From positions 1,057 through 40,783 of the forward strand of contig CAZCKF010000001.1 of NCBI GenBank assembly GCA_964499155.1: a DNA stretch of 39,727 nucleotides, given 5' to 3'. The notes under the pieces are model-generated. The model saw only the letters and a program-made list of their open reading frames with translations. It searched no databases and was not told the origin of the DNA. Made by a program: the position numbers and the translations under genes. Shown in pieces: positions 1 through 35,100 of the stretch; position 1 is the first letter of the stretch, and the number at the start of each line of letters is the position of its first letter. The DNA comes from an uncultured Chitinophagaceae bacterium. Lineage in GTDB: Bacteria; Bacteroidota; Bacteroidia; Chitinophagales; Chitinophagaceae.

Positions 1-263
1 TGATGTACTATTCGGTCAGGGAAATATGGCAGCCGGAATATTTCTCGCTCTTTTGGATCATAGATCTTGAATACGGAGTATTCTGAGGTACGGTAAGATT
101 TAGTTTGTAGCAGCTGCTGAAGAGAGATAAGATTTTGCTCACGGTTTCTATCATGAAGTTGAACTCCATACTGCGAAGCCTTCCCTTTCCTTGCGCGGCT
201 GTCAGCCAGCTGAAGGTTTTCCAGGGAGCACACATCCGTATATATATTACCAATTCTTCGCAT
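1..263 (-). CDS. Reverse transcriptase, DGR-type; only the N-terminal 87 codons are in the window
   Basis: The minus-strand frame is open from the in-frame TGA at 278-276 down to position 1, with ATG at 263-261. My translation is MRRIGNIYTDVCSLENLQLADSRARKGKASQYGVQLHDRNREQNLISLQQLLQTKSYRTSEYSVFKIYDPKEREIFRLPYFPDRIVH. It contains the PK.R.I and DRIV motifs seen in the N-terminal finger region of DGR/group-II-like RTs (compare Bordetella Brt YEPKPRLISALEFKDRLVQHA). It is absent from the ORF track because it has no in-window stop. Confidence 0.85.
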   Translation of the reverse strand, partial: MRRIGNIYTDVCSLENLQLADSRARKGKASQYGVQLHDRNREQNLISLQQLLQTKSYRTSEYSVFKIYDPKEREIFRLPYFPDRIVH

Positions 264-367
264 TGCCTTTGCTTTTCAAAATCGCTTTCCCGAAAAACGG
301 TACCAGTGATCTCGATTATTGAGTCATTTTTTGCCATGTTGGCAAGGCATGCGCTGCAACAAAAATA

Positions 368-443
368 TTAGCATAGGTGAGAGCTGACATTCGTATTCGT
401 ATTCCAGTTATCGTAGTTCGTATTCGAGAACCTGAAGCTGCCA
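368..443 (-). repeat. DGR template repeat (TR), non-coding, about 76 nt
   Basis: Aligns without gaps to 561-636 and 958-1032. All mismatches are at TR positions that are T on the plus strand (A on the minus strand). Read in the VR frame it gives GSFRFSNTNYDNWNTNTNVSSHLC*, with six AAY codons. It lies 104 nt upstream of the RT ATG. Confidence 0.9.
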
Positions 444-485
444 CTGACTAACGAAAAGAACACCGCTCTTGCAGCGCACTACCTA

Positions 486-875
486 TTAAGAGATCAGGAA
501 ATATTCCTTATACAGGTCAGCAAACTGCTTTCCAGCATAGGTTGCTAATTCCCTGGTTCGAAAGCAAAGGCGAGAGCCGACAGTCGTATCCGTATGCCAG
601 TGATCGTAGTACGTATACGAGAACCCGAAGCCGCCAGGACGCTTATCATCAGCCTTTATTTCAAACCATGGGAAATATTTATATTCATCGGAGTCATTCC
701 AGTTGGGTTGCCATCCATCATTCAGAGCCTCAGCGATAATGATCAACTTAAAATGTGCAATTAGGGCTTTTTGATGTTTGGAAGGCACCACTGAAACTTC
801 AGGAAGCGCCATTGGTTTTAACCCCAATTTTTCACATGCTTCCTCATAAGTTTTTACTGTTTTAGTTTTTGCCAT
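486..875 (-). CDS. DGR variable (target) protein 1, 129 aa, paralog of 862..1356
   Basis: ORF-track ORF. Contains VR1 (GGFGFSYTYYDHWHTDTTVGSRLCF), followed by a conserved tail ELATYAGKQFADLYKEYF. No signal peptide or TM segment is visible. Confidence 0.85.
   Translation of the reverse strand: MAKTKTVKTYEEACEKLGLKPMALPEVSVVPSKHQKALIAHFKLIIIAEALNDGWQPNWNDSDEYKYFPWFEIKADDKRPGGFGFSYTYYDHWHTDTTVGSRLCFRTRELATYAGKQFADLYKEYFLIS
561..636 (-). repeat. DGR variable repeat VR1
   Basis: Over TR 370-443 there are 11 mismatches, all opposite TR adenines. Two further A-type mismatches lie at 368-369. Confidence 0.9.
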
Positions 876-1356
876 TTTGAGAATTTTCTATTGTTAGGAA
901 TTGTTTGTATAGATCCTCGAACTGAGTGCCGGCATATTGAGCCAGCTCTTGAGATTTGAAGCAAAGGCGAGAGCCGACAGCCGTATGCGCAATCCAGCCA
1001 ACGCAGTACGTATGCGAGAACCCGAAGCCGCCCATCTTAAAATAAGGGATCCACTTACGCTGGTTTCCATTATCCCAATCAGGAACCCAACCTTCATTGA
1101 GTGCTCGAGCAACAATGATCAGTTTACAGTATGCTATAATAGAGGAATAGTCTTTATCAGGAACTCCAGCAGGAAGTACATCACTTTCCTGAAGCCCCAA
1201 AACTTCACACGCATCTTCAAATGTTTTTACTCGGTCAGTTATTTTTTGAGAGAAAAAGGTTTCACCAAAAGTGTCAATGAGCATTTCCTTGAACTCCTGC
1301 GATGCGGATGGGTAAAGCTTTTTAGCTTTCTTCTGATCAATCTGAAGTGTTTGCAT
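862..1356 (-). CDS. DGR variable (target) protein 2, 164 aa, paralog of 486..875
   Basis: ORF-track ORF. Contains VR2 (GGFGFSHTYCVGWIAHTAVGSRLCF). It shares the blocks TFEDACEVLGL / ALNEGW.P.W and ELAQYAGTQFEDLYKQF with target 1. Its 3' end overlaps the start of target 1 by 14 nt. Confidence 0.85.
   Translation of the reverse strand: MQTLQIDQKKAKKLYPSASQEFKEMLIDTFGETFFSQKITDRVKTFEDACEVLGLQESDVLPAGVPDKDYSSIIAYCKLIIVARALNEGWVPDWDNGNQRKWIPYFKMGGFGFSHTYCVGWIAHTAVGSRLCFKSQELAQYAGTQFEDLYKQFLTIENSQNGKN
958..1032 (-). repeat. DGR variable repeat VR2
   Basis: Over TR 370-442 there are 16 mismatches, all opposite TR adenines. All 51 non-adenine positions are identical. Confidence 0.9.
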
Positions 1357-2383: not shown

Positions 2384-4078
2384 TTATATTTCTAACAATT
2401 CAGGATTTAAACGAATCTTTCCAGATTCGCGTTTTATTAATTCCAGAGTATTTAAAGATGAAAGAGCATTGTTGAACCCACCAGAATTAAATGAGTATTG
2501 GCTTGGTGTTTTTGCCGCTAAGTCCTCCTTTGAAAATTCATGATTTGGATTATCAAGAAGCAGCTGATAAATTTCCCGCTCACACTTGCTGAGCTTCTCT
2601 ATATAAGTATGAATAGAATATTCCTGCGGCTCAAAATCCCCCAGGCAATGATGTAAATCTGCAGAAGTATTGGCCCTGACCTTACCTCCGTTTCTAATTA
2701 TTAGACCACTTGAATTGAGCTCACTTAATGCATTATTAAAACCACCACTATTAGGTGAGTATCCAGTTGCAACTCCGACTTGCGTTTTAGTGAATTCTCT
2801 TTCACTATAAGTTGCCAGAAACTGTAGTATTGCTTTTGGGCATTTTAATAATTTTCCGTTGGAGGATGCCTCCGTTACTTTATGATAAACCCTATCAGTA
2901 AACTTTTGATTATGATCAGTGAAGGATTTGTGTACTGGAACTGACATCACAACATCCTTCTTTGTTTCTTTTATTTGAAGCTTAGTCCAGTCAGCTTTTT
3001 TGTTTCTTGCCAGATCGCTAATCTGTTGAAGGATAGTTGCGTATTCAGTAAGCCGCTTACCTAATAGTGCCTCTTGCTGAAGATTCCGGCTAACTTCCTT
3101 TTCTAAATCCGCAATCCGCTTTTTAAATTTGCTGTCATCAAACTTTACAGCAGCTGGCTGTGAATTTTTTAACTTCGTAAGCTCACTCCTTAACCGTGCG
3201 ACCTCTGCCTGAAGCTGTTGTTTAGATACTAATTCCTTCTCAGCCTCTTCAGGTATATCAACTAGTTTGCTAAGTATTTTTTTAACAGCCGCTGGCGTAG
3301 GTGGAGCAGCTGTGATTCTTTTGCCAGCTCTTAAATGCGTTGTTACTACAGGCCCGACCTTAAATTTGGTGATCTCATTATTAATCGCGGGGCCAAATGA
3401 AAAAAATTCTCCCTCTTTTAATTCCCGAAGGGAAAGCATGTCCGTCTTATTTATCATTCCCAATTCATCTCCAGCCCTTTTGCGATCGATATCCAGGCCT
3501 GTCCTGCCAATCATCTTATTTAAACATTCGGCAGCTGCATCCTTATGAAGTTTACTTAGTCTTTGTGTTGCCAGGATACCAGCAAACCCCCGCTTCCTAC
3601 CTCTTGTGCATAGATCTATCACCGAACTCATGGATTCAGACTTGCTGCTTTCGGGGCAAAATATGTGGGCTTCATCCACATACACAAAGCAGGAATGCCA
3701 CAGTTCTTTTGGGGCATTAATTAAAGCATCCAGAAATTTTTTCACAAATTGAATGCGCTCGTAGTGCTTCAATTCATATAAATCAATAATAGCGGAAAGG
3801 TTTGTCTCAAGAAGTTTGTTGGCAAGCATTTCAGCGTATCGCAGTGATAACGGTATATCACCCCCTTTCGCCACGAGAAGGAAATCAAACTTTTCTCTTA
3901 GTGTTACGAACTCACCTTCGGGATCAATTATTATTTGCTGAACCTGGTTGCCGACTGACTCAGCTACTTTTCTAATCGCCCAGGATTTTCCACCCCCGCT
4001 CCCTGCTTGGATAAGAAGTCTTGTGTCCAATAGTTTTTGAACATCAATCTCTATTCCTATGTTGATCTTGTTTGACAC
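2384..4078 (-). CDS. HerA/FtsK-like P-loop ATPase with a coiled-coil linker and two C-terminal winged-helix-like repeats
   Basis: Walker A is GSGGGKS, Walker B is VYVDEAH, and ILATQRLSKL resembles the HerA/DUF87-type TQRPS block. A heptad-rich middle region follows. There is an 88-aa internal duplication, with YSPNSGGFNNALSELNSSGLIIRNGGKVRAN (nt 2669-2764) and YSFNSGGFNNALSSLNTLELIKRESGKIRLN (nt 2405-2500). Confidence 0.7.
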   Translation of the reverse strand: MSNKINIGIEIDVQKLLDTRLLIQAGSGGGKSWAIRKVAESVGNQVQQIIIDPEGEFVTLREKFDFLLVAKGGDIPLSLRYAEMLANKLLETNLSAIIDLYELKHYERIQFVKKFLDALINAPKELWHSCFVYVDEAHIFCPESSKSESMSSVIDLCTRGRKRGFAGILATQRLSKLHKDAAAECLNKMIGRTGLDIDRKRAGDELGMINKTDMLSLRELKEGEFFSFGPAINNEITKFKVGPVVTTHLRAGKRITAAPPTPAAVKKILSKLVDIPEEAEKELVSKQQLQAEVARLRSELTKLKNSQPAAVKFDDSKFKKRIADLEKEVSRNLQQEALLGKRLTEYATILQQISDLARNKKADWTKLQIKETKKDVVMSVPVHKSFTDHNQKFTDRVYHKVTEASSNGKLLKCPKAILQFLATYSEREFTKTQVGVATGYSPNSGGFNNALSELNSSGLIIRNGGKVRANTSADLHHCLGDFEPQEYSIHTYIEKLSKCEREIYQLLLDNPNHEFSKEDLAAKTPSQYSFNSGGFNNALSSLNTLELIKRESGKIRLNPELLEI

Positions 4079-8063: not shown

Positions 8064-8139
8064 TGGGGCGAAGGCGGGATTCGAACCCGCGACCTCATGG
8101 TTATGAGCCATGCGAGCTACCAAACTGCTCTACCGCGCC
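8064..8139 (-). tRNA. tRNA with CAT anticodon (Met, or Ile2 if modified with lysidine)
   Basis: Manual cloverleaf: acceptor GGCGCGG, TA, D-arm GAGC-AGTTTGGTA-GCTC, anticodon arm CATGG-CTCATAA-CCATG, variable loop AGGTC, T-arm GCGGG-TTCGAAT-CCCGC, acceptor 3' strand CTTCGCC. There is one C5:U68 mismatch and one G:U pair in the acceptor stem, and no clean encoded CCA. Confidence 0.75.
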
Positions 8140-12554: not shown

Positions 12555-13691
12555 TCAGCGATACAATTTAGCTACTTCCTTATCCAGGCTTTCATCATCA
12601 AGAGCCTGCAGATATCTTTCTGTGATCAGTGTGCTGGAATGACCAAGACTGTCTTTAATCGCTGAAATATTTCCTGATTTCTGTTTCATGTGAAATGCAA
12701 AACTGTGCCGGCTGATGTGCATGGTGACGTGCTTTTGAATTTTAGCAATGCCAGCTGCAATCTTCAAATTGCGGTTTACCATTGTATTTATGATATCAAG
12801 GGCTTTCCTTCTTTTTTCTTCACCAAGTGGAAGATCTTCTTTCAGATATGGAAATAAGAAAGGTCCTGAATACCGGTCTATGATCGCCTGAAGTTTGGGA
12901 TGAATCTGGACAGAAAGAAATGCCTTACCCTTATTTATTTTGAAATATATCCTTCCATTTTTTATATCAGATCTTTTTGCAGTGATGCAGTTTTCAAACC
13001 TGACACCCTTTGAATAGTAAGCAAACATGAAGAGATCCCTTGCCATCCGGGTTTGATCATCTGGCAGCTCCACTGATTCCAATGCTTTTATTTCCGCCTC
13101 TGTCAGTTTTTCTTTTTTGGTAGGGACCTTACCAATCGTAAATTGTTTAAAAGGGTTAGGGTGCCTGGCACGTCCTTCCTGGATAGCTTTTTCAAATAAC
13201 TGTCTCAGTTTTGCAAACTTGTTTTCCCTGGTATTCTGATGATTCTCTTTCAAGTAAATGTTGAGCTTGCGTAAATGATCCTGTGTAATATCTTCAAAGG
13301 TTATTTCACCAAGCGATTCCTTTACTTCCGTTGCAAGCCTTTCTGTTTTCCGGTACATGGTATATTTCCCTTCATCCTTGTATTGGCTTGCCCGGTGGAT
13401 AAGATATCCTGTAAATGAATTGCCGGTTTCCTTTTTGAAAACATCATCCAGGTTATAGATGGTATGGGAGGAAATATATCTTCGAACAGTAGAAAGAAGA
13501 TCATCAATCTTTGAGTTGATGATTGCTGCATCTGGATGTTTCCTGACTGCATTATCTGCCCATTGCGACTCTTTTATTTTAAAGCCAGTAGGTATCAACT
13601 TTTGTTTTCTTCCTAAGATTAACCGTATAACAAGAGGATAGGTATCATCTTTTGACTTATATCGTTTGTTCAGAAAAACTCGTGAAGTCAT
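12555..13691 (-). CDS. int: Tyrosine recombinase / phage integrase (Bacteroidota-style, N-terminal arm-binding plus SAM-like plus catalytic domains)
   Basis: Catalytic residues lie in ...VRFENCITAKRSDI... and HISRHSFAFH...LGHSSTLITERYL (R, H-x-x-R, H, Y). The N-terminus LNKRYKSKDDTYPLVIRL is typical of this integrase class. Confidence 0.85.
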   Translation of the reverse strand: MTSRVFLNKRYKSKDDTYPLVIRLILGRKQKLIPTGFKIKESQWADNAVRKHPDAAIINSKIDDLLSTVRRYISSHTIYNLDDVFKKETGNSFTGYLIHRASQYKDEGKYTMYRKTERLATEVKESLGEITFEDITQDHLRKLNIYLKENHQNTRENKFAKLRQLFEKAIQEGRARHPNPFKQFTIGKVPTKKEKLTEAEIKALESVELPDDQTRMARDLFMFAYYSKGVRFENCITAKRSDIKNGRIYFKINKGKAFLSVQIHPKLQAIIDRYSGPFLFPYLKEDLPLGEEKRRKALDIINTMVNRNLKIAAGIAKIQKHVTMHISRHSFAFHMKQKSGNISAIKDSLGHSSTLITERYLQALDDESLDKEVAKLYR

Positions 13692-19446: not shown

Positions 19447-22400
19447 TTAATTCCTAAATCGACCTCGCATTTTATCTCCTATAATCTGGTTGGGGTTAAC
19501 AATAATGATCACCGTATCAGTAGCCGTTGCGCCTCGATCATCAGTAACCGTAACCTGGAAAGTATAAGATGATGCTGGCTGCAGTCCTGCTATCACGGTC
19601 CCTCCCTGGGTTGGGAATCTTATTATCGATCCGTTTCCGGAAAGTTTTGTATGCAGTATAGAGACAATATTTCCGTCATCGTCATTTGCCTTTATCGATA
19701 CTATAATTGAATCGCCTTCAATAAACTGTGTTGCTGCTCCTTCAAACTCCACTGTTGGAGAAGAATTGACAAGAACTGTAACTGTGTCTTTAGCGATTGC
19801 TCCGCGGTTATCAGTAACCATCAATTCGAATTGGTAAGTACCAGGGATAAGGCCTGTTAATCCTGTTGCAGAAAGTGCAGGAGTTGTAATCGTTACAGCT
19901 CCACCGGTTAGTTTACTCCACAAATAAGTTAAAATGGTACCATCTTCATCATTAGCTGATCCAGTCAGTACTGTTGAAGTTGATGGAGTATTTATTTGTA
20001 AATCCGGGCCAGCCGAAACAATCGGTGTTGCATTAGCGGTCACAACAATAACGACTACATCATCATCGATTGCGTCATCATCATCTTTAACTCTAAGATT
20101 TAATTGATAGGTCCCGGGTGTTAATCCTGAAAATGTTGTGCTTGCTGAATTTGCATTTCCAAATGTTCCACCGGTGCCAGATATTTTAGTCCATTGATAA
20201 GTAACTATCGTGCCGTCAGAATCTGTCCCACCTCCGGATAATGTTACTGAGCTATTTGGTGGATAATAAATGGATTGGTCACTACCAGCATTTGAAATGG
20301 GTTGAATGTTTACAGGGGGTGCAGCATTAACAATAACGGTGATAGTATCAACCGCAGTTGCACCGCTGTTGTCTGTTACAGTTAATTTAATCTGGTATTC
20401 CCCGGCCGTAAATCCCGTCACTGTCGTTGTTGCACTTGCGGTTGCAGTAATCGTGTGTGGTCCAGCTGTTATTTTACTCCAGGCATATGTTGAGATCGTC
20501 CCATCTATATCAGTTCCGGAACCGTTTAATGTCATCTCACTAACCGGTAAATCAAACTCCTGATCACTACCGGCATTCGCTGTTGGAGGAATATTAGGTG
20601 CAGGGTTAACGGTTATAGTAACAGTATCGTCATCTGTTGCCCCTTGGTTATCCGTTACAACTAATTTCAATTGATAAGCCCCTGCTGTAAATCCAGAAAC
20701 TGTTGTAATTTGACTGGAAGGATTTATAATCGTGTGTGCCCCTGCAGTAATTTTTGACCAGACGTAAGAAACAATCGAGCCGTCTGGATCTAGACTACCA
20801 TCACCCTTTACACTTACTGTGTTTCTTGGGAGAGTAATAGTTGAATCTGTCCCAGCATTGGAAATGGGGTTTGTATTAGTAGGAGGACCTGATGTAGTGA
20901 ACCCAAATCCGAGAGCCTTATAAGTATCATCATCGCGGAGCCTATAATCATCAGGAGGGTGCAATCTTCTTACACCTCCTTCATTCCAGGTTAATAATTC
21001 CCAGTTGGCGTCTGTGTAACCTTTAGGAACGTTTCCGGTATTATTAAAAATCTTGGAGCGGTAAAATTTTCCAAAATAAAAAGCAACCTCATTAAGTGAA
21101 TAACTCCATGGTTGCAGCCATTTAGGAGCAATCCCAGGCGTAGGCGACTCATCCTTATAAGTAGCATAAATTAAATCTGCCCACCATGAATTATTATTAA
21201 AATTGTAGTTATCACCCCATCCGGAATTAACATACTTCGGATATGCTACCGGTATCCCGTTTTGGTTTCCGGAGCTATCAAGATTCGCGGCAGTTACAAG
21301 AATTGATTTTGATCCGTCGCTTTTGTTGTTCTTAAATATTGCCCTGAAAGTATTGTCAGTTTTGAAAACTATGTTATCATTCTTTCCTTCTGTTGCATTG
21401 GAATTATAAACCCGGTCATTAGTCCACTGCATGTTCTTGAAGAAGTTGCCGGTAATACTGATTTTTTCATTAGGTAACCTGCTTGAATGTGACCCGCCAC
21501 GTGAACCATGTATATCTCCAAGGAAATTATAATCAACATGGTTTGTATCGCCGTTAGGTGCAACTATAATATCCCTGGCTGATCCGTTAGCAAAGAATTG
21601 TGTTGCACCTTGAACTATGTTATATTGAAATCTGTTTCCACCGTTCCTATATGCCATTTGAAATCCCCGATCGTTGAATGGTCCGAAAGGAGTCATGAAT
21701 TTGAACCCTGCATTAATTACAACATTGTTGTGAATGCTGTTACCTAAGCCCTGATTATTAAACTGTATTCCTTCACTCCCAGTCCTTACGATAAGATTGT
21801 CATGAATGTCCCATCCATTGCCCTGATGTTGCCAATTTATAACAGCCGAATCCTGGCCATTGACACCTTTTACATATATCGTATCACCGGACGTGGATAA
21901 CGCATAAATTCCTTCACTACTCAAATCATGCAGGAAATTGTGATGGACTTTGAAGAAGTCATAATCGTTTGTACTTGTGAGAGCCAGATCTTCTGCCTTG
22001 ATAAAGAATCCTGAGAAATATCCGTTAGCAGCTTCAAAGTTGTCCATCTCGACAGAATCTGTAAATGCTCCGGCCAATAAAACGCCATGCTGATTTAAAT
22101 TCTGCCACCTGTTATTGGCATAAAAACCAAACTTCCCATGACGGTTGGCATAGCCCCCGGCAAAACCCTGGTAGTTAACGTGACCTCTCACACCTGGTAC
22201 ATATGCTCCTGACCAATGAACGTTTCTAAGGTTGGAAACTTTCCATTCTCCCATCCATTCAACCTGGCCACCGTAGGTGTACATAAAATTCCTATTACCA
22301 GCTGCTGAGCTTCCAAAGAATGTACTGTCCTGAAAATGTGTTGTGATAGCACCATACCGCCCGGCTCTTACCCATATGCCTCTATTCGGTGCAAGAGCAA

Positions 22401-23955
22401 TTTGATCGGTATTGTGCAGATAGATATTATATTTCGATCCATTGATAACAACATCATTTGCACCATCGATGATTATGTCACCAAGAGCCATAAATGCCCA
22501 TGTACCAATATCCGCCGGTGTTACAAGTCTCCAGCCATTACCGTTTGTCGCTTGCGGTGGAGGGGTGCCGCGGTTCACGAAAATCATCATACTATCAGTA
22601 CTCGTGCATCCGCTATCGTTAGTAACAGTGAGGTATATTTTCTGTCCCGCCACTGAAGAAAACGAAGGCATCAAAACTTCTGGAGTTGCTGTATTGCTGT
22701 GTTTAATATTATATGTCTGCGCTAATGGATCTCCTTTGGGTGGAATAGCTTTATACCAATTGTAATTAACGTTAATGCCTGTAGATGCTAAACCATTTAA
22801 ATAAACAGTATGGGTTGTATCATCAAGTTCAATTGTTTTATCAGGCCCTGCGTTAGCTACACAAGTCCCTGGATCAACAGGAACAGCAGGGTTGACAGTT
22901 ATTTGAACAGTATCTAAATCAGACAGACTTGAATTATCTGTAACTAATAAGCTAAATTGATAGGTACCGGCCACCAAACCGGTTGCAGAAGTTGATACAC
23001 TATTAGCCGTTGTAAGATTGTAAGTATTAGGCCCCGATACCCTTCTCCATAAATAGGAAGTGATTGACCCCCCTGGATCTGAAGAACCCGAGCCATTCAG
23101 TGTAACTGAATTTGTAGGTAAGGTGATTGTTTGGTTTGATCCAGCATTGGATATAGGTGCTCCTGTTGTCGGCGGAGCAGGCGTATTGGCCGGCGTGATC
23201 AGCCACTCATAAACACTTTTACCACCTTCCCTGTAATTCGGATTATAATAATTATTCCAACAGCAATGCCCCCCACTGAACATTGTCATTTTATTATTCG
23301 GATAGCCTGCATTTGTAAGATTATTTATAAAAGCCTGCAAAGACTGGCCGCGTCCTGCGTCGTTATTTCCCGAAATCGCCCATACAGGGATTGACGCATA
23401 ATTTGAAATAGATCCGTGAAAAGCAAACGACATGGGAACAATTGAAGCCACCTTTGCTTTGGCACCCGGAATAGTATTTATGTATTCAAATATGGAGTAA
23501 GCACCACATGACAACCCTGTAAGAGAAATTTTATTATTCCCCATTGAATACCGCTGCCTCACCGCCTCAACCAATCCATCATAAACAGTTGCGTTCATAC
23601 ATGAAGCCTTCGGTTGGACAGCTATGATCCGAATGTTTGCAGGTCTTAGAGAGCCATTGCTCATATAGATTGCAGGACCATGGACAAACAATCTTGTATG
23701 CTGCCCCATTTTTTCAGCTACGGTATATGGAGGAATACCGTCTGGTCCATGTATGCCTACTCCGTAATCCCTTGCTTCATCTCTTCCTGTTGTGAACATG
23801 ATCGTTTTAGTAGAACTATTTGCACCCGTCGGCACCCACTCAACAATATTGATCACGTCACCAGATACAATCATTGTATCAATGCGGTAACCGGGAACCT
23901 GCCCGTATACAAGTACTCCTAATAAAATAAATCCTATCGTTATTAATCTTTTCAT
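19447..23955 (-). CDS. Giant multidomain tailspike-like/depolymerase protein with signal peptide, alpha/beta-hydrolase esterase, PKD-like, right-handed beta-helix, CBM-like and 5x PKD-like domains
   Basis: Start at MKRLITIGFILLGVLVYGQ (ATG 23955, one base after the upstream TAA). The esterase triad is in order: GLSCG, NNDAG, GGHCC. Beta-helix-type repeats include NNVVINAG and HDNLIV. A CBM5/12-like block is YSLNEVAFYFGKFYRS...ANWELL. Five tandem ~90-aa Ig/PKD-like repeats span nt ~19489-20871. Confidence 0.7.
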   Translation of the reverse strand: MKRLITIGFILLGVLVYGQVPGYRIDTMIVSGDVINIVEWVPTGANSSTKTIMFTTGRDEARDYGVGIHGPDGIPPYTVAEKMGQHTRLFVHGPAIYMSNGSLRPANIRIIAVQPKASCMNATVYDGLVEAVRQRYSMGNNKISLTGLSCGAYSIFEYINTIPGAKAKVASIVPMSFAFHGSISNYASIPVWAISGNNDAGRGQSLQAFINNLTNAGYPNNKMTMFSGGHCCWNNYYNPNYREGGKSVYEWLITPANTPAPPTTGAPISNAGSNQTITLPTNSVTLNGSGSSDPGGSITSYLWRRVSGPNTYNLTTANSVSTSATGLVAGTYQFSLLVTDNSSLSDLDTVQITVNPAVPVDPGTCVANAGPDKTIELDDTTHTVYLNGLASTGINVNYNWYKAIPPKGDPLAQTYNIKHSNTATPEVLMPSFSSVAGQKIYLTVTNDSGCTSTDSMMIFVNRGTPPPQATNGNGWRLVTPADIGTWAFMALGDIIIDGANDVVINGSKYNIYLHNTDQIALAPNRGIWVRAGRYGAITTHFQDSTFFGSSAAGNRNFMYTYGGQVEWMGEWKVSNLRNVHWSGAYVPGVRGHVNYQGFAGGYANRHGKFGFYANNRWQNLNQHGVLLAGAFTDSVEMDNFEAANGYFSGFFIKAEDLALTSTNDYDFFKVHHNFLHDLSSEGIYALSTSGDTIYVKGVNGQDSAVINWQHQGNGWDIHDNLIVRTGSEGIQFNNQGLGNSIHNNVVINAGFKFMTPFGPFNDRGFQMAYRNGGNRFQYNIVQGATQFFANGSARDIIVAPNGDTNHVDYNFLGDIHGSRGGSHSSRLPNEKISITGNFFKNMQWTNDRVYNSNATEGKNDNIVFKTDNTFRAIFKNNKSDGSKSILVTAANLDSSGNQNGIPVAYPKYVNSGWGDNYNFNNNSWWADLIYATYKDESPTPGIAPKWLQPWSYSLNEVAFYFGKFYRSKIFNNTGNVPKGYTDANWELLTWNEGGVRRLHPPDDYRLRDDDTYKALGFGFTTSGPPTNTNPISNAGTDSTITLPRNTVSVKGDGSLDPDGSIVSYVWSKITAGAHTIINPSSQITTVSGFTAGAYQLKLVVTDNQGATDDDTVTITVNPAPNIPPTANAGSDQEFDLPVSEMTLNGSGTDIDGTISTYAWSKITAGPHTITATASATTTVTGFTAGEYQIKLTVTDNSGATAVDTITVIVNAAPPVNIQPISNAGSDQSIYYPPNSSVTLSGGGTDSDGTIVTYQWTKISGTGGTFGNANSASTTFSGLTPGTYQLNLRVKDDDDAIDDDVVVIVVTANATPIVSAGPDLQINTPSTSTVLTGSANDEDGTILTYLWSKLTGGAVTITTPALSATGLTGLIPGTYQFELMVTDNRGAIAKDTVTVLVNSSPTVEFEGAATQFIEGDSIIVSIKANDDDGNIVSILHTKLSGNGSIIRFPTQGGTVIAGLQPASSYTFQVTVTDDRGATATDTVIIIVNPNQIIGDKMRGRFRN

Positions 23956-23956
23956 A

Positions 23957-26900
23957 TTAATATACTCCAACCCAGTGCCTTACTGTGTTACCTGCTATTG
24001 TTGATGCAGTTATAGTTGCAGGAAGTGAGTTTGTTGCGGACTTTTGTCCGATTAAAAAATTACTATTGGTAAAATCCATTGATGTTTCATTTGTAAGACC
24101 TGCTGTTACAATTCCTATTTGAGGAGGAGTAGATGCTGACGAATAATTCAGAAGTAATCCAACATAATATCTACCTCTTGGAAGTGTAATTGGAGATGTG
24201 AATGGCTCTTTCGTCATAGCGTTTACAGTGCCCTTGTATAAATTGGGGTTATCTGCACTGCTTGCCAGAAGCGTCATTGTTCCACCAATACTTTTTGTGA
24301 AAATTCCGACCTGGTTTGTCTGATCAGCTGTATAAACACCGGAAAGTGTGAGCCAGAACATAACACCAGTGATCGTTCTTGTCTCCGGGATATCAATTGC
24401 CGCATACCTGGCAACGTTATCAACGACTGCTGAAGCACTACCTGCAGTAATGTTATAAAACGTCCAGCCTATATTCTCACCTTTAATTTCTGAACCCAAA
24501 TCCTGATAAGCTGCTATTGTACTACGCTCCCTGTCACCTATCGCCTTCCAGTTTGTGCCATCAGATTTGAACTCGTAAACCCGGTCATTATCCAATGCTG
24601 TTATAGCCACATCTTCAGCATCAACAACAGATCCTGAAACAAGCCAAGTGAATGCAGCAGAATTATTATTTGTTACTTTAATTATTTGCCCTGCTACTTG
24701 AGATGGGAATGTTAGTGTGCGATTAGCTGTTATTGTTGGCAGGATCTGGTGAGTAACCGCCATTGAAGTATTGGCATCGGAAGCTGTGGCTGTATAAAGG
24801 GTGAGTACAGGCGTCGAAAGATTTATTCTATTTGCCCATAGGCTAAAAATGTCAATCTTATCTGCATTCTCTCCAAGGTCCACATCAAAAAGACCACCGC
24901 CTATTATTCTGTTCGAGGTAAAATCTCCGTCAGCCGTAAGCCAGCTTGAACCGCCGCCAGAAGCGTTGATTGTTGTGCCGGTGATTGATAAATTGGTGCC
25001 TAGTGTAAGCCATTTAAATGCATTATCACTTTCATCCCAAAATGCAATCCGGTCAGCTCCTGGATCAGACAGAGCTTCCAGTCCTAAATGAGAAAGTGCT
25101 ATCGTTGGATTTGCAGAAACACCATTCCCGTTTGTTACACCTATTCCGGTCCCTTGGGTAATTGTTCTACCAGTGAAATTATCTGCGCTCGTTTGGACAA
25201 CAATCCCATTTGTATTGAAAGAAGCCAGAGCGGCCAGTGTTGCATCTGATCCTTGTGCACCGATATCAGAAAGTGTTTCTGCACCTGTACGATATCTTAC
25301 TTCTCCGTCGCCATCAATAACAAGGAATTTATCAAGGTCAGTTGTTTCGTGGTGAACTTGGCTAAGAGAAAGAGAGTCATATACGCGGATATTACCAATC
25401 CCAGGATCAATTGGTTCAGCTCCTGTTCCAAGAACGATTCCTCCTGCTCTAAAAAACTTACCATAGGTAATTCCACCTGGTGAAACTTCAACAGCCGTAA
25501 CACCTACCACCAAATCAGAAAAATCACTATTCGCATTTAATGAAATTGAAGTAGGGTCGCGCAATACGAGTGCACCTTGATGATAGAGTGACGCATTTGC
25601 TGCAGTTGCGTTTACCACTCCACCAAACCAGATCCCATAAAAACTATTTACATTACTAAGGCCTATATCCATTCCTCCTGATGAACCTATGTGCCATCGC
25701 TTATTTGCTTCGTCCCAGGAGAAGTATGGATAAGATTGTGTCAGCTCAGCATCGGCTCCAATAAATGGAATTGATCCGGGAGTGAACCCTGTAAGTACGG
25801 GTGCTTGATCAAAGGTGTTTATTCCGGTAAAAATGTTGTTGATAGCAAGATGCGGAACCTCCTCTTTGTTAGCCTTGAAATTGTATAGAAAATCGAAAGT
25901 GCCAGATGATATTATACCGTCCTGACCAGATTCATCAGCATACCTAATCCTTAAAGAATCGTTGGAAACATAAAGCGGATTAACAGCGATTGTAGTTGCA
26001 TTGCCTGAAAGCTTATAAGCCCAAGTTCCTGGGTTTCCTGCAGCTGTGCAGTACCATATTAATACTGAATCAGGACCCCCCTGATTAATCACAATATCTC
26101 CAACACCGTGTTTACCGACTGTTGGAGGCCCGGACCCACCCCTGATATTTCTTTTACTCCCATTAGCTGGGTTAGTAAGGAAAAAACCATCCTGGTGAAA
26201 AATAGTAAGTCCGGCTCGCACAGCTGAATCGCGACCGAAATCAGTACCAGCTATTGCATTACCAGTAATACTGAAAGCAGTATAATCAATTGAGTTATTC
26301 CAAAATAAGCGTGCATACTTATCGGATTCAAAATATTTTATAGATCCGTAGCTGTGGGCAGATTTTTTTGATCCAAATACATGACCGGATACCCAGTCAA
26401 CTCCGGAAAATTCATTTGTTGAATCTCGATTATAAACCTCAACTCCTTTGCCACGAAACACTCTTCTGCCTTCTACCACCTCATCATATGAACTTCTATG
26501 AAATGCATTGTTACCAACAACCTCGACTGCAGCTGCATTGGTGCCTCCGTTCCACATTCCACGAAGTCCTAAGTCGTGGCCTCCCTGCTCACCTTCAGTG
26601 TAACCCCAAATCTTTGTTCTTGCTACCTGACCAGATACTTTAATGACCCGGGAACCATAATATTTTACATCCGATCTCCAAACTTTAGATATCAATGATG
26701 CATCGCCGGCGCAGCACACTGTCATGTCCTGCCAGTAGTCACCATAATCAGATGCAGTTGGATTTTTATTGATGTTATCCTCGACGGCTAAGTAATACCT
26801 CCATATCCCACCAACGAATATTTTAACCCATGAATCCTGCAGTGTAGAATCACGCAATCCATTGGATGCGATATGCACGTTGCTGTAAGTATTGCCGTGG

Positions 26901-28159
26901 GCGGACTCATCAAGAATTCCATGACGGCTATTGGTCTGGATGTCGGGATTTTCAATACTTATTGCATTTGCGTCCCATCCGCTTAGGTGAATACCGTGAT
27001 GACGGTTTTGCCAGACATGAATGTTGCGAAGAACAGAAGTACTCGCGTTTCCTGAATCAGTTGGTGAACCAGCCGTATTTCCAAAGCCTCTTACACCGGT
27101 TGCCGGAAAACCTTGAAAGGTTAGATTATCTGCAACAATACCGGTATTAAACACCATCCCATGTTTCGTCGTATCTGTACCGCCGGCAAGAGCATAAAAA
27201 TGCAGGTTCTCAACTCTTACATTCCGTGCCTTGAGACCTTGAGAGGTTTGTAAAATTTGCAGGCCTGAGTTATTCGCAGCTACATAAAACCTTGTTTCAG
27301 GATAAGGTTGAAAACCGGCGCCAAGACCTATCAGGTTTACAGCTGTGTCGATCAAAATCGGTTTACTAATAAAGTACCCATCGACAGGCGGTGGAACTAG
27401 AACTACACCCCGATTGACAATAAGATTTGTGGGATGCAGGGAAACTGGTTTATTCGCTTTCAGGGCCCTGGTCATAGGAAGCCAGTCATCGGCGATCAGA
27501 TTTCCAACAAGACCAAACCATTTAGCAGAAGATGTTCTGTTTTCCAGGTTACTTACATCGATGTTCTTATCGAAGCATTGCTTCATTAAATTGCAATCGA
27601 TCAAACCGCCATTCCATTTTGCTGCTCCTCCAGAAGCGACTATTCTATTATCATTTCTGAATGTGATGACTTTGGTACCGGCATTAACTGTTCCGGTGAT
27701 TGTGATATCACGCTGCGAGAGATCATCAAAAATTAATTCTTTTACACTGGCAATTGCAAGTGCGGCATTTATTTTAGCAGTCTGATCGGTACCATCCCCT
27801 TTAATTCCTAAATCTTTTGCTCGTAACGTGCCAGCCTCCACATACCAAAAAGATTTCACGCCATTCTTCCAGCAGTAGAGTGAATCAGTCCCCTGTTTTT
27901 TAATTACACTATCACAACCCACGCCACCGGCACCACTCATGTGCTCTTCCCAGAAAGTTTTTTTTATGTAGATCTTTCCATTCTTGTATGCAATGGATCC
28001 TGAATCAGCAGTGGCCAAAGTATCGGGAAGGCGCAGCTGCCCACCAGGAGCAAACCTTAATTTTAAAAATTCAAATGGTGTATAGTTTTTCTGATAGACT
28101 TGCGCGATCGCTACACTGCAGATCAGTAAAAGAAAAACTATGAACGAATACTTTTTCAT
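23957..28159 (-). CDS. Giant beta-helix (pectate-lyase-superfamily-like) tailspike-like protein with an N-terminal signal peptide, 1400 aa
   Basis: Signal peptide MKKYSFIVFLLLICSVAIAQ. KDLGIKGDGTDQTAKINAALAIAS is the typical start of pectate_lyase_3/tailspike beta-helices. The body is long and rich in G, N and T. Confidence 0.65.
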   Translation of the reverse strand: MKKYSFIVFLLLICSVAIAQVYQKNYTPFEFLKLRFAPGGQLRLPDTLATADSGSIAYKNGKIYIKKTFWEEHMSGAGGVGCDSVIKKQGTDSLYCWKNGVKSFWYVEAGTLRAKDLGIKGDGTDQTAKINAALAIASVKELIFDDLSQRDITITGTVNAGTKVITFRNDNRIVASGGAAKWNGGLIDCNLMKQCFDKNIDVSNLENRTSSAKWFGLVGNLIADDWLPMTRALKANKPVSLHPTNLIVNRGVVLVPPPVDGYFISKPILIDTAVNLIGLGAGFQPYPETRFYVAANNSGLQILQTSQGLKARNVRVENLHFYALAGGTDTTKHGMVFNTGIVADNLTFQGFPATGVRGFGNTAGSPTDSGNASTSVLRNIHVWQNRHHGIHLSGWDANAISIENPDIQTNSRHGILDESAHGNTYSNVHIASNGLRDSTLQDSWVKIFVGGIWRYYLAVEDNINKNPTASDYGDYWQDMTVCCAGDASLISKVWRSDVKYYGSRVIKVSGQVARTKIWGYTEGEQGGHDLGLRGMWNGGTNAAAVEVVGNNAFHRSSYDEVVEGRRVFRGKGVEVYNRDSTNEFSGVDWVSGHVFGSKKSAHSYGSIKYFESDKYARLFWNNSIDYTAFSITGNAIAGTDFGRDSAVRAGLTIFHQDGFFLTNPANGSKRNIRGGSGPPTVGKHGVGDIVINQGGPDSVLIWYCTAAGNPGTWAYKLSGNATTIAVNPLYVSNDSLRIRYADESGQDGIISSGTFDFLYNFKANKEEVPHLAINNIFTGINTFDQAPVLTGFTPGSIPFIGADAELTQSYPYFSWDEANKRWHIGSSGGMDIGLSNVNSFYGIWFGGVVNATAANASLYHQGALVLRDPTSISLNANSDFSDLVVGVTAVEVSPGGITYGKFFRAGGIVLGTGAEPIDPGIGNIRVYDSLSLSQVHHETTDLDKFLVIDGDGEVRYRTGAETLSDIGAQGSDATLAALASFNTNGIVVQTSADNFTGRTITQGTGIGVTNGNGVSANPTIALSHLGLEALSDPGADRIAFWDESDNAFKWLTLGTNLSITGTTINASGGGSSWLTADGDFTSNRIIGGGLFDVDLGENADKIDIFSLWANRINLSTPVLTLYTATASDANTSMAVTHQILPTITANRTLTFPSQVAGQIIKVTNNNSAAFTWLVSGSVVDAEDVAITALDNDRVYEFKSDGTNWKAIGDRERSTIAAYQDLGSEIKGENIGWTFYNITAGSASAVVDNVARYAAIDIPETRTITGVMFWLTLSGVYTADQTNQVGIFTKSIGGTMTLLASSADNPNLYKGTVNAMTKEPFTSPITLPRGRYYVGLLLNYSSASTPPQIGIVTAGLTNETSMDFTNSNFLIGQKSATNSLPATITASTIAGNTVRHWVGVY

Positions 28160-28173
28160 TATAAGTAATGGAT

Positions 28174-29517
28174 TTAAACTTTGATTGCCCAGAGTACTCC
28201 CACGTTATCTGGTCTTGTTTCTACAGCAAGTCCTGAATTGAATCTTAACCACTGGTTTGCGCTATTTGTCAGCCATCCGCCCGCGCCATCCATTCCTGAA
28301 AAACCTCTCACCCCTCCGCCTTCATCAAGAGCATTGGTAGCGGACCCACCTGATCCATTCAGTATTTCAATCTTTACGTTATCCATGTTGGTGAGGAATG
28401 CCTGGAATCCACCTGGCTTATTCAGATGCCTTTCCGTATCACTGCCTGTGGAAGATTTCACTCCACGCAGGAACATATTCATCAGATCAGGGATCCGGAA
28501 TGTTGTTGAGCCGTCACCAGTAGAAAAGCAACCGCGGTATGGTTTTAAAACAGTTCTTCCACCAAGCAAAACTGATGCTGTCAGCCAGGTAGCATCGCTG
28601 ACGAGAGAAGAGCCAAGGGTCTGTACGTATTCCCACAATCTTGGATAGGTGGCCCGGAGTACGAGCTGGCCTTCGCAGAGCAGCTCGTTTGACTCCACTT
28701 TGTATTTAGGTATAGGTATGGCCAGCTCTTTATATGATTTTGCGAAATCATTGATCACATACCATCCATCATCGCCGCGGTAAAGCCAAAGATTTTCTCC
28801 CAGTCCCATCCAGACTGCAGTCTTCGACATGTTGTTGAAATAAATATTCTGTCCTCCAGAGGTTTGTATTTTATTCTGAACAGAATTGTTGATGGATGTC
28901 TCGATCGGAATGATAGTATTTGCCGGCACATCAGCAACACTGGGAAGAGTGATCGTTATTTGTGCAGCCAATGAACGGACCTGTATCAGTTTATTCAGGT
29001 GAGTTGAAGGAAGGATTGCAAAATTTGTCGATACAGGAATTGATCCTGTGATGAATGATCCGCCAACAGATCCTGGAGGAGCAGGGTTACCTCCTTGGAG
29101 AGTAAAAAGATCTATTTCAAACCTTTCACCAAGGCCAAGTGTGTCACCAGCTTTTAAAAGTTTGAAACCTCCGCCTGCTAACACTTCATATTCTGCTGCT
29201 GCGATCGCTGGTACCTGTTGGTGAATCAGTGGAAAGCCGCCGCGGCGAAGATTAAAATCAAGTCCTGCAAGAGAAGGTATATTCCATGTTTGTGTTCCTG
29301 CAGGTCCGGCAGGTACTTCCATGATAATTTTGCCGCCATTATAAACGGGAGGTAAAACAGCATCACCGCCAGTCTGAATTAAAGTACTTACATCGGAGAG
29401 TTTTGTATGCCTTAATTTGCCATCAGCAGTGATATAAATTGGTATGAGATCGTCCAGTGAAAGCGGATCTACCTGGTTGGGAAGCTCCGGTACCCGGACC
29501 GTTTGCAAGGGAGGCAT
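28174..29517 (-). CDS. Tail fibre protein with a C-terminal phage tail-collar domain
   Basis: YPRLWEYVQTLG...GDGSTTFRIPDLMNMFLRG...ETRPDNVGVLWAIKV matches the collar-domain pattern (F.lPDlrg.f.rG ... E.RP.N). Confidence 0.75.
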   Translation of the reverse strand: MPPLQTVRVPELPNQVDPLSLDDLIPIYITADGKLRHTKLSDVSTLIQTGGDAVLPPVYNGGKIIMEVPAGPAGTQTWNIPSLAGLDFNLRRGGFPLIHQQVPAIAAAEYEVLAGGGFKLLKAGDTLGLGERFEIDLFTLQGGNPAPPGSVGGSFITGSIPVSTNFAILPSTHLNKLIQVRSLAAQITITLPSVADVPANTIIPIETSINNSVQNKIQTSGGQNIYFNNMSKTAVWMGLGENLWLYRGDDGWYVINDFAKSYKELAIPIPKYKVESNELLCEGQLVLRATYPRLWEYVQTLGSSLVSDATWLTASVLLGGRTVLKPYRGCFSTGDGSTTFRIPDLMNMFLRGVKSSTGSDTERHLNKPGGFQAFLTNMDNVKIEILNGSGGSATNALDEGGGVRGFSGMDGAGGWLTNSANQWLRFNSGLAVETRPDNVGVLWAIKV

Positions 29518-32157: not shown

Positions 32158-35100
32158 TTACATTTCAACGCGCAATTTTTTTAATCCAGTTTCATAGGCA
32201 TCAAATTTCGATAACAGCCTGGCAGAATTTGCTTCAATACCTTGCAATACAGTTAATGAAGATGTAGCGATCTTCAACTGGTCAAGGACTGTAAGCCTCA
32301 TTCCACCTATTTGACCTGCCAGCAAATTCCCTGTTTCCTCAGTGATACTTTTAATAGTACCGGATAGCGCATTTCCTCCATTCGTGCCAGGCTGGAAATT
32401 GACGTTTGTGATTTTTTGCAATTCTTCGAACTTTTTACCTGCATCCCCAATAATTGAATTGAAATTCTCCCGAAGTTTTCGGATCTCTTCTTCAGTAAGC
32501 ATGGATCCACTCTCAGCATCGGCCGCAAACTCATCATAAAATTTCTGCAATGGCTTCTCCAGCGCCTGGAATTTCAGTGACTGCAAAACTGCATTACGCA
32601 TAAGATCTTCGAAAGATTGAGCAAAATCAGCCGCCGATCTCTTTCCCTCGCTGAACCCCGCAACAATGGAATCGACGATGCTGTCAGCTGTAGTTCCTGT
32701 TAATGCTTCCCGGAATGCTCTTGCATTCTCAGCTAACAATGCATCGATATCGGCACCCTCCTGCTTAATTTTCTGAAGCTGAATAAAAAGTTCTTTTGCT
32801 TTACCTGTGAGCTGATCAGAAATAAATAATTTTTCCAGCTCTTCAAATGTCTTTCCGACAAGGGACTCACGAATCTCCTTTGTCCGGGTATTCAGATTAC
32901 CGGCAAGTCCTCCCAATAGTAATGTGCCGAGACCAGGGCCTTTCTTTTTTAAACCGGTAACAAAGGTTTCACCTTGCAGCTGCTTAAAAATGTCCTCGTA
33001 CTGTTTCTTTGCAATCGCAGCCTGTTCCTGCAACAGTTTTCGTTCATCCTTTAATCCATCCAATTTCAGTTTATTGAGTTTAACCTGCTCTCTGGCACGT
33101 TCGCGAAGAATTTCATTCATTTCATGTTCACCGACCATTAACCTAGTCTGGAAATCAAGGATGGCTTTCTCAGCAACTTTTTTAGATTGGATGGCTGGGC
33201 CAATGGCGGAAACAATACTTGATATAGAGGATATCACAGACCCGATGCCGGAAACATTTCCTTCGGTTGTACCCAGCTTAAAGGAGCCTATAGCACTTAC
33301 AGCAGAAGCAGCAGCATCAGTAAGCCTGGACATTGTTTCAAGGGAATCGGCGAGGTCAACATTTAGTTCTCTTACAGCTCCTGCAGCGTGGCTCATGCCA
33401 GACGCAATTTCGCCTATCTGACGAGCTGTTTTTTGTAGTTTAATATTATCAAGTGCTCCTTGGCTTGTCTCATCAAATAGATTTTGAATCTGCTCGATGT
33501 AACTAATGATGGCAGCTCTCATTTCCGGAGTGAGAGATAAATCCTTCTCCAGAATCTTTCGAAGATCATTAGCCCTTGTTTTCAATTGAGCCCTGGAGAA
33601 ACCAATAATATCTTCATTTAGCTTCCTATATAAATCGCTTTGACGCAACAGATGATTATCCAGCTCCTTCAATTCATCAGCACGATTTTGCTGCAATAAT
33701 TTTTTACGTGCGTCGAAATCTGGAAGACCACGGTTATTATCAAGAGTTTTTTCAAGAGCGTTATACTTTTTATTGATGGCAGCCCTTGCTACATTATAGG
33801 TTTGTGTTTCTTCTAAAAGCTGAGCGTATTGTTCGGCTTGGAGAGCTACTTCTCTTTCCCGTTTTTCTTTTTCTGCTTTTAAATATGCATCACTGATATC
33901 CAGCCTTTTTTGGTCAGCAGCTTTTGAGCGATCATCCTGAAGTTTTTCTATTTCCAAATGAAGGAAATCAAGATAATCAATGGCGGCGCCAGTTTCAGAG
34001 CCCATCAATTTCTGCGCTTGCTCTATTCCAAATTGTAATTTGTATTCCTCGAACCGGTCGAACACTGCTTTTTGATCATCTATCCCCTTTTTAAAAATCT
34101 CCAGTTCCTGTTTCACTCTTTCATTGCCCAGCTGGATGGTCCTGGCGGCTTCAATACGTTTGAAATCTGATTCTCCTGCTTTTAGTTCCCTAGCTTTGTT
34201 TCGAAGATCATCGTATCTCTCGTTAATCCGATCGAGTGCAGATTCTTCTTTAAGTAGTCCTGACCGGTTAGCATCAATTTCAGCCTCGGTTATTAATTCT
34301 CTGAGTCGCTGCAATTCTTCCAGACGTTCATTAGTTTCCCTGGCGAAGGCTTTGTCTGCTTTTTTATCTCCAGCAATGGCAGCTCGCTCTTTCTCTAATT
34401 TATTAATCTGTTTATCATAGTTTATTCTTTTTTCTGCAGTATCGGACCTGGTCCGCTGCTCTTCGCGAAGCACTTTTATTTCTTCATCGATAACAGCGAT
34501 GGTCCGAAGTGTTGCGCCCTGTTTTTTTGGCTCTCCAATTAATTTACTTTTCAGTTCGTCACCATAAGTATTTTTTACTTTTTCAATCGTCTGCCCATAC
34601 TCTTCTACTGCAGAGACGGCTGCTTTATACCGGGCATGTTCCAATGCTGCATCACGACTTGATATTAGTGGTAACTTATCAGCTCCTCTTCCCTGTAACC
34701 TCAATACTTCAGTTTGAGCTTTTCTTTGTTCTGTAGCAAGGCGAGCAATTTCATTTTCAGCTGCAGTTGCTAAAGCGCGTCGATCAAGGGCTTTTATATA
34801 TTCATCGATAGCAGCAGTTGCTTTACCTGTTCTAATTTCTTCCTGCGTAATATTAGCCAAGTATTCTGGTGAAAGGGAGTTGATCTTCCGCATTGCTGCT
34901 TCCTTGTCAGCTTTCGATGCAGTTTCATCTTTAACGATGGCGATCAGTTGTTGAAGGGTTTGCTTTTCTTTTTCTGTTGCTTCTGCAGCTTCATCGGTAA
35001 TATCAGCGAGTGTTTTTTGTTGCTTCTCTGCAAGGGAAACCTCTCTGCCAAATATTTTAAATGCCGCAATTAGTCCAACAAGTGCCGAAGCAACTAATGC

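Follow-up and report, generated by a model that had tools for sequence, protein, structure and literature searches.

The question raised by this locus is whether a 76-nt segment, present once between genes and once in each of two adjacent small genes, is the template of a diversity-generating retroelement (DGR), and what the proteins encoded by the two genes might do. It was addressed in a 39,727-nt stretch of an uncultured Chitinophagaceae assembly (GCA_964499155.1, contig CAZCKF010000001.1, positions 1,057 to 40,783), the whole of which is called the window below. Our answer, given with high confidence, is that the repeats form a DGR of a temperate siphophage of Bacteroidota type, with a template repeat (TR) serving two small proteins of the early region. 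This reading is based on repeat geometry in which only adenines differ, the N-terminus of a reverse transcriptase (RT), a structured spacer RNA, conservation of the cassette and diversification in related phages. Every testable element of the DGR proposed in an earlier note, which had been made from the letters alone, was present in canonical order on the minus strand (Table 1).

Adenine-confined variation and the cassette around it

A repeat search of the window returned one family of direct repeats in three copies of 74 nt (369-442, 562-635 and 959-1032). Re-alignment of TR with the two variable repeats, VR1 and VR2, reproduced the ungapped three-way alignment of the earlier note with its offsets of +193 and +590, and the mismatch coordinates listed there were exact (11 sites in VR1 and 16 in VR2 over positions 370-442). 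On the minus strand, TR has 22 A and 51 non-A positions over this range. Tabulated by template base, 27 of 27 mismatches fell on a template A (plus-strand T), all 51 non-A positions were identical among TR, VR1 and VR2, and 17 of the 22 TR adenines were altered in at least one VR. The hypergeometric probability of mismatches confined to A was 2.0e-7 for VR1 and 1.4e-11 for VR2. The two VRs differed from each other at 10-11 sites, each of them A-templated. Homology extends to positions 368-369 (AA in TR, TT in VR1, TC in VR2), giving 13 and 18 A-only mismatches, and position 443 matches in VR1 only.

When every template A was masked as N, the resulting pattern occurred exactly three times in 39.7 kb and was absent from shuffled sequence. 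This search found no fourth copy in the window and no remote VR in its tail-fibre or other tail genes. VR1 corresponds to codons 80-105 of the 129-aa target and VR2 to codons 108-133 of the 164-aa target. TR is intergenic and is closed by a TAA in the VR frame; the VR reading frame and the six AAY codons of the template were as the earlier note had described them.

The same note would have taken the lack of an RT ORF continuing to the left as a refutation, and such a frame is present. The program that listed open reading frames (ORFs) omits those running off the window edge, and the RT frame was found by translation (positions 1-338 of the minus strand, third frame). It reads MRRIGNIYTDVCSLENLQLADSRARKGK...YDPKEREIFRLPYFPDRIVH, starts at the ATG at 263, is still open at base 1 and is homologous to known RTs. 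The fragment matched RTs of crAss-like and other phages with a best identity of 55% (E 1e-26; tblastn, 54 matching records) and phrog_1423 'reverse transcriptase' at 8e-22. It shared 69% identity with the N-terminal part of a complete RT (332 aa) from a related locus, L033, and 31% with the N-terminal part of Brt from Bordetella phage BPP-1. The L033 enzyme matched Pfam RVT_1 (5e-17), contained IGNYLSQ and shared 36% identity with Brt over 315 aa (E 1e-59), with the IGxxxSQ motif aligned between the two; RTs of the DGR clade are marked by [ILV]GxxxSQ in motif 4. Its scores against the NCBIfam group II and retron models were 115 bits (cut-off 300) and 59 bits (cut-off 235), respectively. No retron or intron RNA was found in positions 1-1500 (Rfam), and the repeat search found no inverted repeats in the window.

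A 109-aa ORF (8..337, minus strand) was also considered as the RT start or as an accessory gene. It is another frame through the RT-17-like spacer, overlaps the RT frame, gave only noise against Pfam and is most likely not a gene.

The spacer between TR and RT gave a full-length but sub-threshold cmscan match to the Rfam family RT-17, of which it is a divergent copy. According to Weinberg et al. (2017, PMC5737381), RT-1 to RT-19 are motifs found near RT genes; RT-10 lies in the TR-RT spacer of BPP-1, and the other RT motifs were speculated to serve other DGRs. Homologous spacers of related phages scored 49-58 bits against RT-17 in 8 of 11 loci. An alignment of 42 spacers supported three helices: 88% of cells were paired versus 35-50% when the partners were slid, double-sided changes occurred in 91 cells versus 22 +/- 5 in shuffles, and the covariation score was 0.517 versus 0.06-0.10. 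The window spacer retains helices P1 (UUGCC/GGCAA) and P3 (CCG/CGG) together with the conserved CUGGUA, GAAAG and AAAAGCAAAG stretches. As judged from these alignments, RT-17 is the TR-RT spacer RNA of this DGR clade, which assigns a role to an orphan Rfam motif.

The cassette is shared by many related phages. Among 80 IMG/VR loci with a target homologue, 70 encode a homologue of the RT N-terminus (47-69% identity) on the same strand, just downstream. In 69 loci an intergenic TR was paired with a total of 139 VRs (two VRs in 60 loci, three in 5, one in 4), and the distance from TR to the RT start was always 94-114 nt. These 139 pairs contained 1886 mismatches at TR adenines versus 108 elsewhere, the latter mostly at alignment ends. 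Two pairs of near-identical phages were informative: the 16 differences between L031 and L051 were without exception at A-templated VR sites, as were 13 of the 14 between L075 and L078, and TR was the same within each pair. Across near-identical relatives, TR showed 0-1 differences versus 13-23 in the VRs, and both the distal and the proximal VR were variable. Since near-identical phages differ almost only at A-templated VR sites, the cassette family is active in nature.

In 58 related IMG/VR loci, a basic 105-aa ORF (phrog_19665, pI 9.3) overlaps the 3' end of the RT gene (e.g., L033:6754-7071); its distance from the RT start is constant at 967-970 nt. This ORF had no Pfam or NCBIfam hit and is a candidate accessory protein replacing Avd, the basic four-helix-bundle protein of about 110-130 aa in DGRs of BPP-1 type, in this DGR clade. 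Gene content upstream of the targets is not shared by the window and its relatives; the mobile unit therefore consists of the targets, TR, RT-17, RT and the 105-aa ORF.

The repeats could also be read without a retroelement, the 76-nt segment being a fragment of a third paralogue and its adenine pattern a product of chance or compositional drift. The two targets are indeed paralogous, with about 50% amino-acid identity, so some repeat would be expected. Outside the VR, however, the paralogues differ at all four bases (36 differences: A14, C8, G8, T6), whereas the TR-VR mismatches all lie at A; an RT gene starts 104 nt away, and the target-TR-RT arrangement is alike in 66 of 69 related loci. 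We regard this explanation as effectively refuted and assign it almost no probability.

Table 1. Features of the window and homologous loci in two cultured phages (IMH, initiation of mutagenic homing; IMH*, its counterpart in TR)
Feature	Position	Strand	Remarks
DGR reverse transcriptase gene, 5' part	1..263	-	ATG 263..261; 87 codons; runs off left edge
Structured spacer RNA, divergent Rfam RT-17 (RF03020)	268..349	-	cmscan
Template repeat (TR)	368..443	-	non-coding; 104 nt upstream of RT start codon
TR, IMH*-like 3' part	368-388
TR, mutagenic core	390-424		17 adenines, six AAY codons
Terminator-like hairpin and T-run	460..477	-	between target 1 stop codon and TR; weak evidence
Target gene 1, short paralogue, 129 aa	486..875	-	nearest TR; phrog_11581 5e-34
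VR1	561..636	-	diversified core 583-617; conserved IMH-like 3' end 561-581 (GTCGGCTCTCGCCTTTGCTTT)
Target gene 2, long paralogue, 164 aa	862..1356	-	extra N-terminal helical region; phrog_11581 3.5e-36
VR2	958..1032	-	diversified core 980-1014; conserved IMH-like 3' end 958-978
564-aa protein	2384-4078	-	N-terminal HerA/DUF87 and Zot-like P-loop ATPase; also phrog_2666 'terminase large subunit'
tRNA-Met (CAT anticodon)	8065-8139	-	between recombination module and integrase region
Integrase	12555-13691
1507-aa protein	19447-23970	-	at least six K319L-like PKD domains plus PKD, Big_9 (E 6e-119)
Tail fibre	28174-29517
Tape measure	32158-36138
Capsid (partial)	38920-39723
Target homologue, LoVEphage	OY725593 57015-57599 (L084:5001-5585)
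Target homologue, Versailles	ON453897 10181-10762 (L083:5001-5582)

Fixed repeat edges, proposed mechanism and current activity

Substitutions were tallied by column over 113 non-redundant TR-VR pairs. The adenines corresponding to the window core (390-424) were represented in the VRs by a mixture of A, C, G and T. At the 3' end, A was replaced by G in 106/109 pairs at window position 385 and in 100/100 at 378, and by T in 92/93 at 374, where the change is synonymous (Leu, CTA to CTT). At the 5' end, A was replaced by G in 10/10 pairs at 439 and in 22/24 at 433. VR1 and VR2 carry the same substitution at all of these sites, which are 567, 571, 578, 626 and 632 in VR1 coordinates, and 10 of the 27 mismatches (five sites in two VRs) are conserved TR/VR differences of the repeat edges.

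The five fixed sites represent neither ongoing diversification nor fresh mutagenesis. Of the 17 substituted sites counted in the earlier note, these five are fixed between TR and VR family-wide, so that diversification in the window is seen at only 12 of the 17 core adenines. As the change at 374 is synonymous, protein-level selection cannot explain its fixation. The fixed 3' differences are consistent with a pair of IMH and IMH* elements at the 3' ends of the VRs and TR, respectively, a role that we infer from the sequence pattern. Arithmetic from the TR codons gives each VR core a coding capacity of 15^6 x 4^5 = 1.2e10 peptides over a 12-codon patch.

By the mechanism proposed here, the minus strand would be transcribed through TR (443..368) and the RT-17-like spacer (349..268). 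The RT encoded from 263 leftwards would bind this TR-spacer RNA and copy TR into cDNA, with priming in or beside the structured spacer by analogy with BPP-1. Random bases would be inserted opposite the 17 core adenines during copying, and the cDNA would then replace the homologous tract in VR1, VR2 or both. The G/C-richer 3' end of the VRs (GTCGGCTCTCGCCTTTGC), which differs from TR at three fixed adenines, would serve as the IMH-like homing signal, and TR would thereby be spared from overwriting by cDNA. The protein surface formed by the diversified patch most likely binds a ligand.

The hairpin between target 1 and TR is suggestive by position only, and such sites are regionally no commoner than in shuffles. 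A scan for sigma-70 promoters and terminators gave counts not above chance, with a model unsuited to Bacteroidota.

Several observations weigh against the DGR reading. The catalytic two-thirds of the RT, including the IGxxxSQ motif, lie beyond the window edge, and an equivalent of the 105-aa ORF would also fall outside. The window spacer scored 23.3 bits against RT-17 (E 0.023 in a 281-nt search, full model 1-95), below the gathering score of 40.4; its inner hairpin is shortened, and P2 contains one A.C mispair. Neither an Avd homologue nor any other hit was found when cassette-flanking ORFs were searched against Pfam, and there is no ORF between target and TR. A hairpin of BPP-1 type was not found after either VR (folding energy versus shuffles, z -1.1 and -0.2). 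The C-type lectin fold was not detected in the targets by Pfam, NCBIfam, Foldseek, the PDB profile search or hhalign, with the VR itself poorly modelled. Finally, no near-identical genome was found among GenBank phages (12-kb megablast) or in IMG/VR, GTDB and JGI metagenomes (exact DNA scan).

Some of these points would fit a relic, in which mutagenic homing occurred in the past and this copy has since become inactive through a defective RT, spacer or accessory gene. The RT is cut by the window, the 105-aa ORF of the 58 relatives is beyond view, and the RT-17 score is 23 bits versus 49-58 in relatives. Other features speak against a relic. All 87 RT codons are intact and highly conserved, TR retains its six AAY codons and a family-typical IMH*-like end, and the spacer preserves its single-stranded motifs and helices P1 and P3. 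The differences between VR1 and VR2 are without exception A-templated, and no other decay is visible. Loss of function is accordingly judged improbable. Because no close relative was found, we infer the current activity of the window's own DGR copy from its intact parts and from the family.

Target family and its possible roles

The diversified proteins belong to a very abundant family. Homologues of the 164-aa target numbered 2305 at 90% clustering, with 5196 representatives at 50%; almost all are 150-165 aa long, with 120-165 aa as the range of the family, and a few are tandem fusions. In the family alignment a hypervariable patch (GFGFSxxxxxxWxxxxxVGSRLCF) is embedded in a conserved scaffold, and two cysteines, C50 and C132, are nearly invariant. 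Neither target had a Pfam or NCBIfam hit, and phrog_11581 is annotated as 'unknown function'. Domain fusions gave no clue to function, the 150 best of the 5196 representatives being only stand-alone proteins or tandem duplications. In members P0122-P0129, P0143, P0182 and P0214 (247-305 aa) the family profile matched twice; in some phages, therefore, the long and short paralogues are fused in tandem.

AlphaFold2 (AF2) models of targets 2 and 1 reached mean confidence (pLDDT) values of 83 and 80, respectively, with the VR segment below 50-55. In the predicted architecture, an N-terminal helical part is followed by a long helix, then by an irregular stretch in which the VR lies, and finally by two C-terminal helices. 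Foldseek searches with the two models returned no match with E below 6 in the PDB and only uncharacterised phage proteins in BFVD. The profile of the target family had no match among PDB sequences, and its comparison with Mtd by hhalign gave a probability of 0.1%. Variable proteins of DGRs with a C-type lectin fold include Mtd, TvpA, TaqVP and the DUF1566/FGE classes; neither this nor another known fold was detected in the targets. The targets may nevertheless be a divergent C-type lectin variant.

Distant homologues of the targets (27-34% identity, tblastn) were found in the cultured Bacteroides/Phocaeicola phages LoVEphage, PV4-TP1, BI-TP1 and Versailles, where they lie among NinB, recombination, Lar-like and methyltransferase genes; their architecture agrees throughout with that of the window's targets. 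Some 15 kb from the small-protein gene, these phages have a canonical tail-protein-TR-RT cassette. The TR of LoVEphage and of Versailles matches that gene over 112 nt, with mismatches at A in 11/11 and 15/16 cases, respectively. On this repeat evidence, the family is a remote second DGR target in both phages. The Versailles homologue is annotated 'tail protein', probably from the shared VR.

Members of the family were also seen at a distance from any RT. Six IMG/VR loci (L016, L018, L019, L029, L067 and L072) contain one with no RT within 6 kb, and L059 and L064 have, besides the cassette, a further copy some 5 kb away from it. Such members are either remote targets or DGR-independent.

In the window the cassette forms the distal end of the replication/recombination module, and 18 kb or more separate it from the tail genes. 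Upstream neighbours in ten sampled relatives were primases, helicases, nucleases and anti-repressors; downstream neighbours were methyltransferases, followed by portal and protease genes.

Receptor binding or adhesion is the classical role of phage DGR targets. It is quite possible, although we would not put it higher, that the DGR is intact and that its targets belong to the virion as receptor-binding or adhesion modules, their genes simply lying apart from those of the tail. The VR peptide resembles the VR of the tail-protein targets under the same TR in LoVEphage, and the TRs of LoVEphage and Versailles template both a tail-protein VR and the small-protein homologue; the VR modules of the small proteins and of tail proteins can therefore be exchanged for each other. 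It is only the VR peptide that aligns to those tail proteins (hhalign E 0.004 and 0.05). C50 and C132 could form a disulfide, and viral DGR targets are mostly predicted tail proteins (Roux et al. 2021, PMC8144416). Several features fit this role poorly. The targets are small (129-164 aa) and have neither a signal peptide nor a tail-protein domain, and the window's tail-fibre genes carry no VR. The cassette always lies at the end of the replication/recombination module, by methyltransferases, anti-repressors and nucleases; such neighbours were present in the window, in 10/10 sampled upstream and 5/10 downstream contexts, and in LoVEphage and Versailles.

The same neighbourhood suggests, more tentatively, that the products of an intact DGR are early intracellular binders, acting in counter-defence or host takeover, whose specificity is retuned by hypermutation. 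We consider this possible but rather unlikely. The cassette occupies an early or anti-restriction position: LoVEphage has several methyltransferases and a Lar-like protein there, L033 and L014 have methyltransferases adjoining the cassette, and the window has genes for RecT, an exonuclease and an ATPase. The targets have no secretion signal, and the family includes members with no RT within 6 kb. This argument is guilt by association, however, and the VR module is common to tail proteins; no homology to known anti-defence proteins was found (PADLOC, a defence-system library, was not searched). A stronger version would define a DGR subclass dedicated to an early, non-structural intracellular protein, with a VR domain of no recognised fold and the 105-aa ORF as a new factor replacing Avd. 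We doubt that this full combination holds. If true, it would be the first phage case of targeted hypermutation for counter-defence rather than adsorption.

The remaining genes of the window identify it as a fragment of a temperate siphophage of Bacteroidota type. In addition to the genes of Table 1, it encodes an endolysin, RecT, an exonuclease and a HerA-like ATPase; a portal or classical terminase gene was not seen in the window. The PKD-rich 1507-aa protein looks like an adhesin or tail fibre and is without a VR of the window's DGR, and the neighbouring 1400-aa protein (23957-28159) had no family hit. In the 564-aa protein, a coiled-coil middle part precedes two C-terminal repeats (…SGGFNNALS.LN…; DNA repeat 2466-2498 / 2730-2762).

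Both ends of the window interrupt genes. Of about 332 RT codons, the first 87 lie inside the left edge, and the capsid gene is interrupted by the right edge at about profile position 85 of 329. The pieces missing at the edges amount to about 990 nt versus 1,056 nt of sequence outside the window, which may be a coincidence or a hint at contig closure. A circular window with the RT at its far end was rejected, as the ORF at the right end encodes part of a major capsid protein (Phage_cap_E positions 85-324) cut by the edge.

Comparison with known DGRs

The DGR mechanism is textbook knowledge, and tens of thousands of such elements have been catalogued. That of the window is ordinary; the interest lies in an uncharacterised, very abundant target family and in its location away from tail genes. 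The phrog_11581 family emerges as the sole substrate of a widespread DGR cassette lacking Avd. A cassette known from metagenomes is now linked to culturable phages, LoVEphage and Versailles, in which the function of the target is testable. Further interest attaches to the Avd-less architecture with its candidate accessory ORF and to RT-17, now assigned to the spacer RNAs of DGRs.

The BPP-1 DGR (mtd-avd-TR-brt) resembles the window in having target with VR, TR, spacer and RT in this order on one strand, with adenine-specific TR-to-VR differences, AAY codons in TR and a homologous RT. Both have a structured TR-RT spacer RNA (RT-10 in BPP-1, PMC5737381; RT-17 here), and in both the 3' ends of TR and VR differ at fixed positions, here in a pattern like that of IMH*/IMH. 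Unlike BPP-1, the window has no avd between target and TR, and where BPP-1 diversifies one tail-fibre gene, the family of the window has two or three small targets that are paralogues. The VRs are internal, being followed by 24-31 codons, so the IMH-like element is coding sequence, and no GC-rich hairpin lies downstream. The TR measures about 75 nt versus 134 nt in BPP-1, the targets show no detectable similarity to Mtd, and the cassette belongs to the early module, not to the neighbourhood of tail genes.

By description, the window also resembles the Lineage 3 DGRs of Wu et al. (2018, PMC5758913), which lack avd and have small motif-less targets; Lineage 3A occurs only in Bacteroides and its relatives. 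Their architectures A1/E1 share with the window a TR-RT core without avd, a Bacteroidota-type range, small targets without motifs and, in some cases, an internal VR. The accessory protein CH1 of the same study has 160-169 aa and a pI of 4.7. The long target of the window is of similar size, and its family has a mean pI of 5.9 +/- 1.1; the match in pI is poor for an identity of the long target with CH1.

Distal second VRs have been reported in cultured gut Bacteroidota prophages, including LoVEphage and Versailles (Dahlman et al. 2025, PMC12629997). Their distal target resembles those of the window in sequence (27-29% identity over 94% of the length), in its N-terminal helices and in the G-x-G-F...VGSRLC scaffold. 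In these two phages, however, the DGR primarily targets a tail protein of 440-450 aa encoded next to TR-RT, whereas the DGR of the window has no targets other than the small proteins, which are duplicated and lie directly upstream of TR; the window VR is also about 37 nt shorter.

In gut phages, the DGRs of tentaclins likewise use one TR for two different target genes (Baykov et al. 2023, PMC10743442). A tentaclin begins with a C-type lectin domain, and Ig domains come after it. The targets of the window, in contrast, have no detectable domain of either type and are paralogous to each other.

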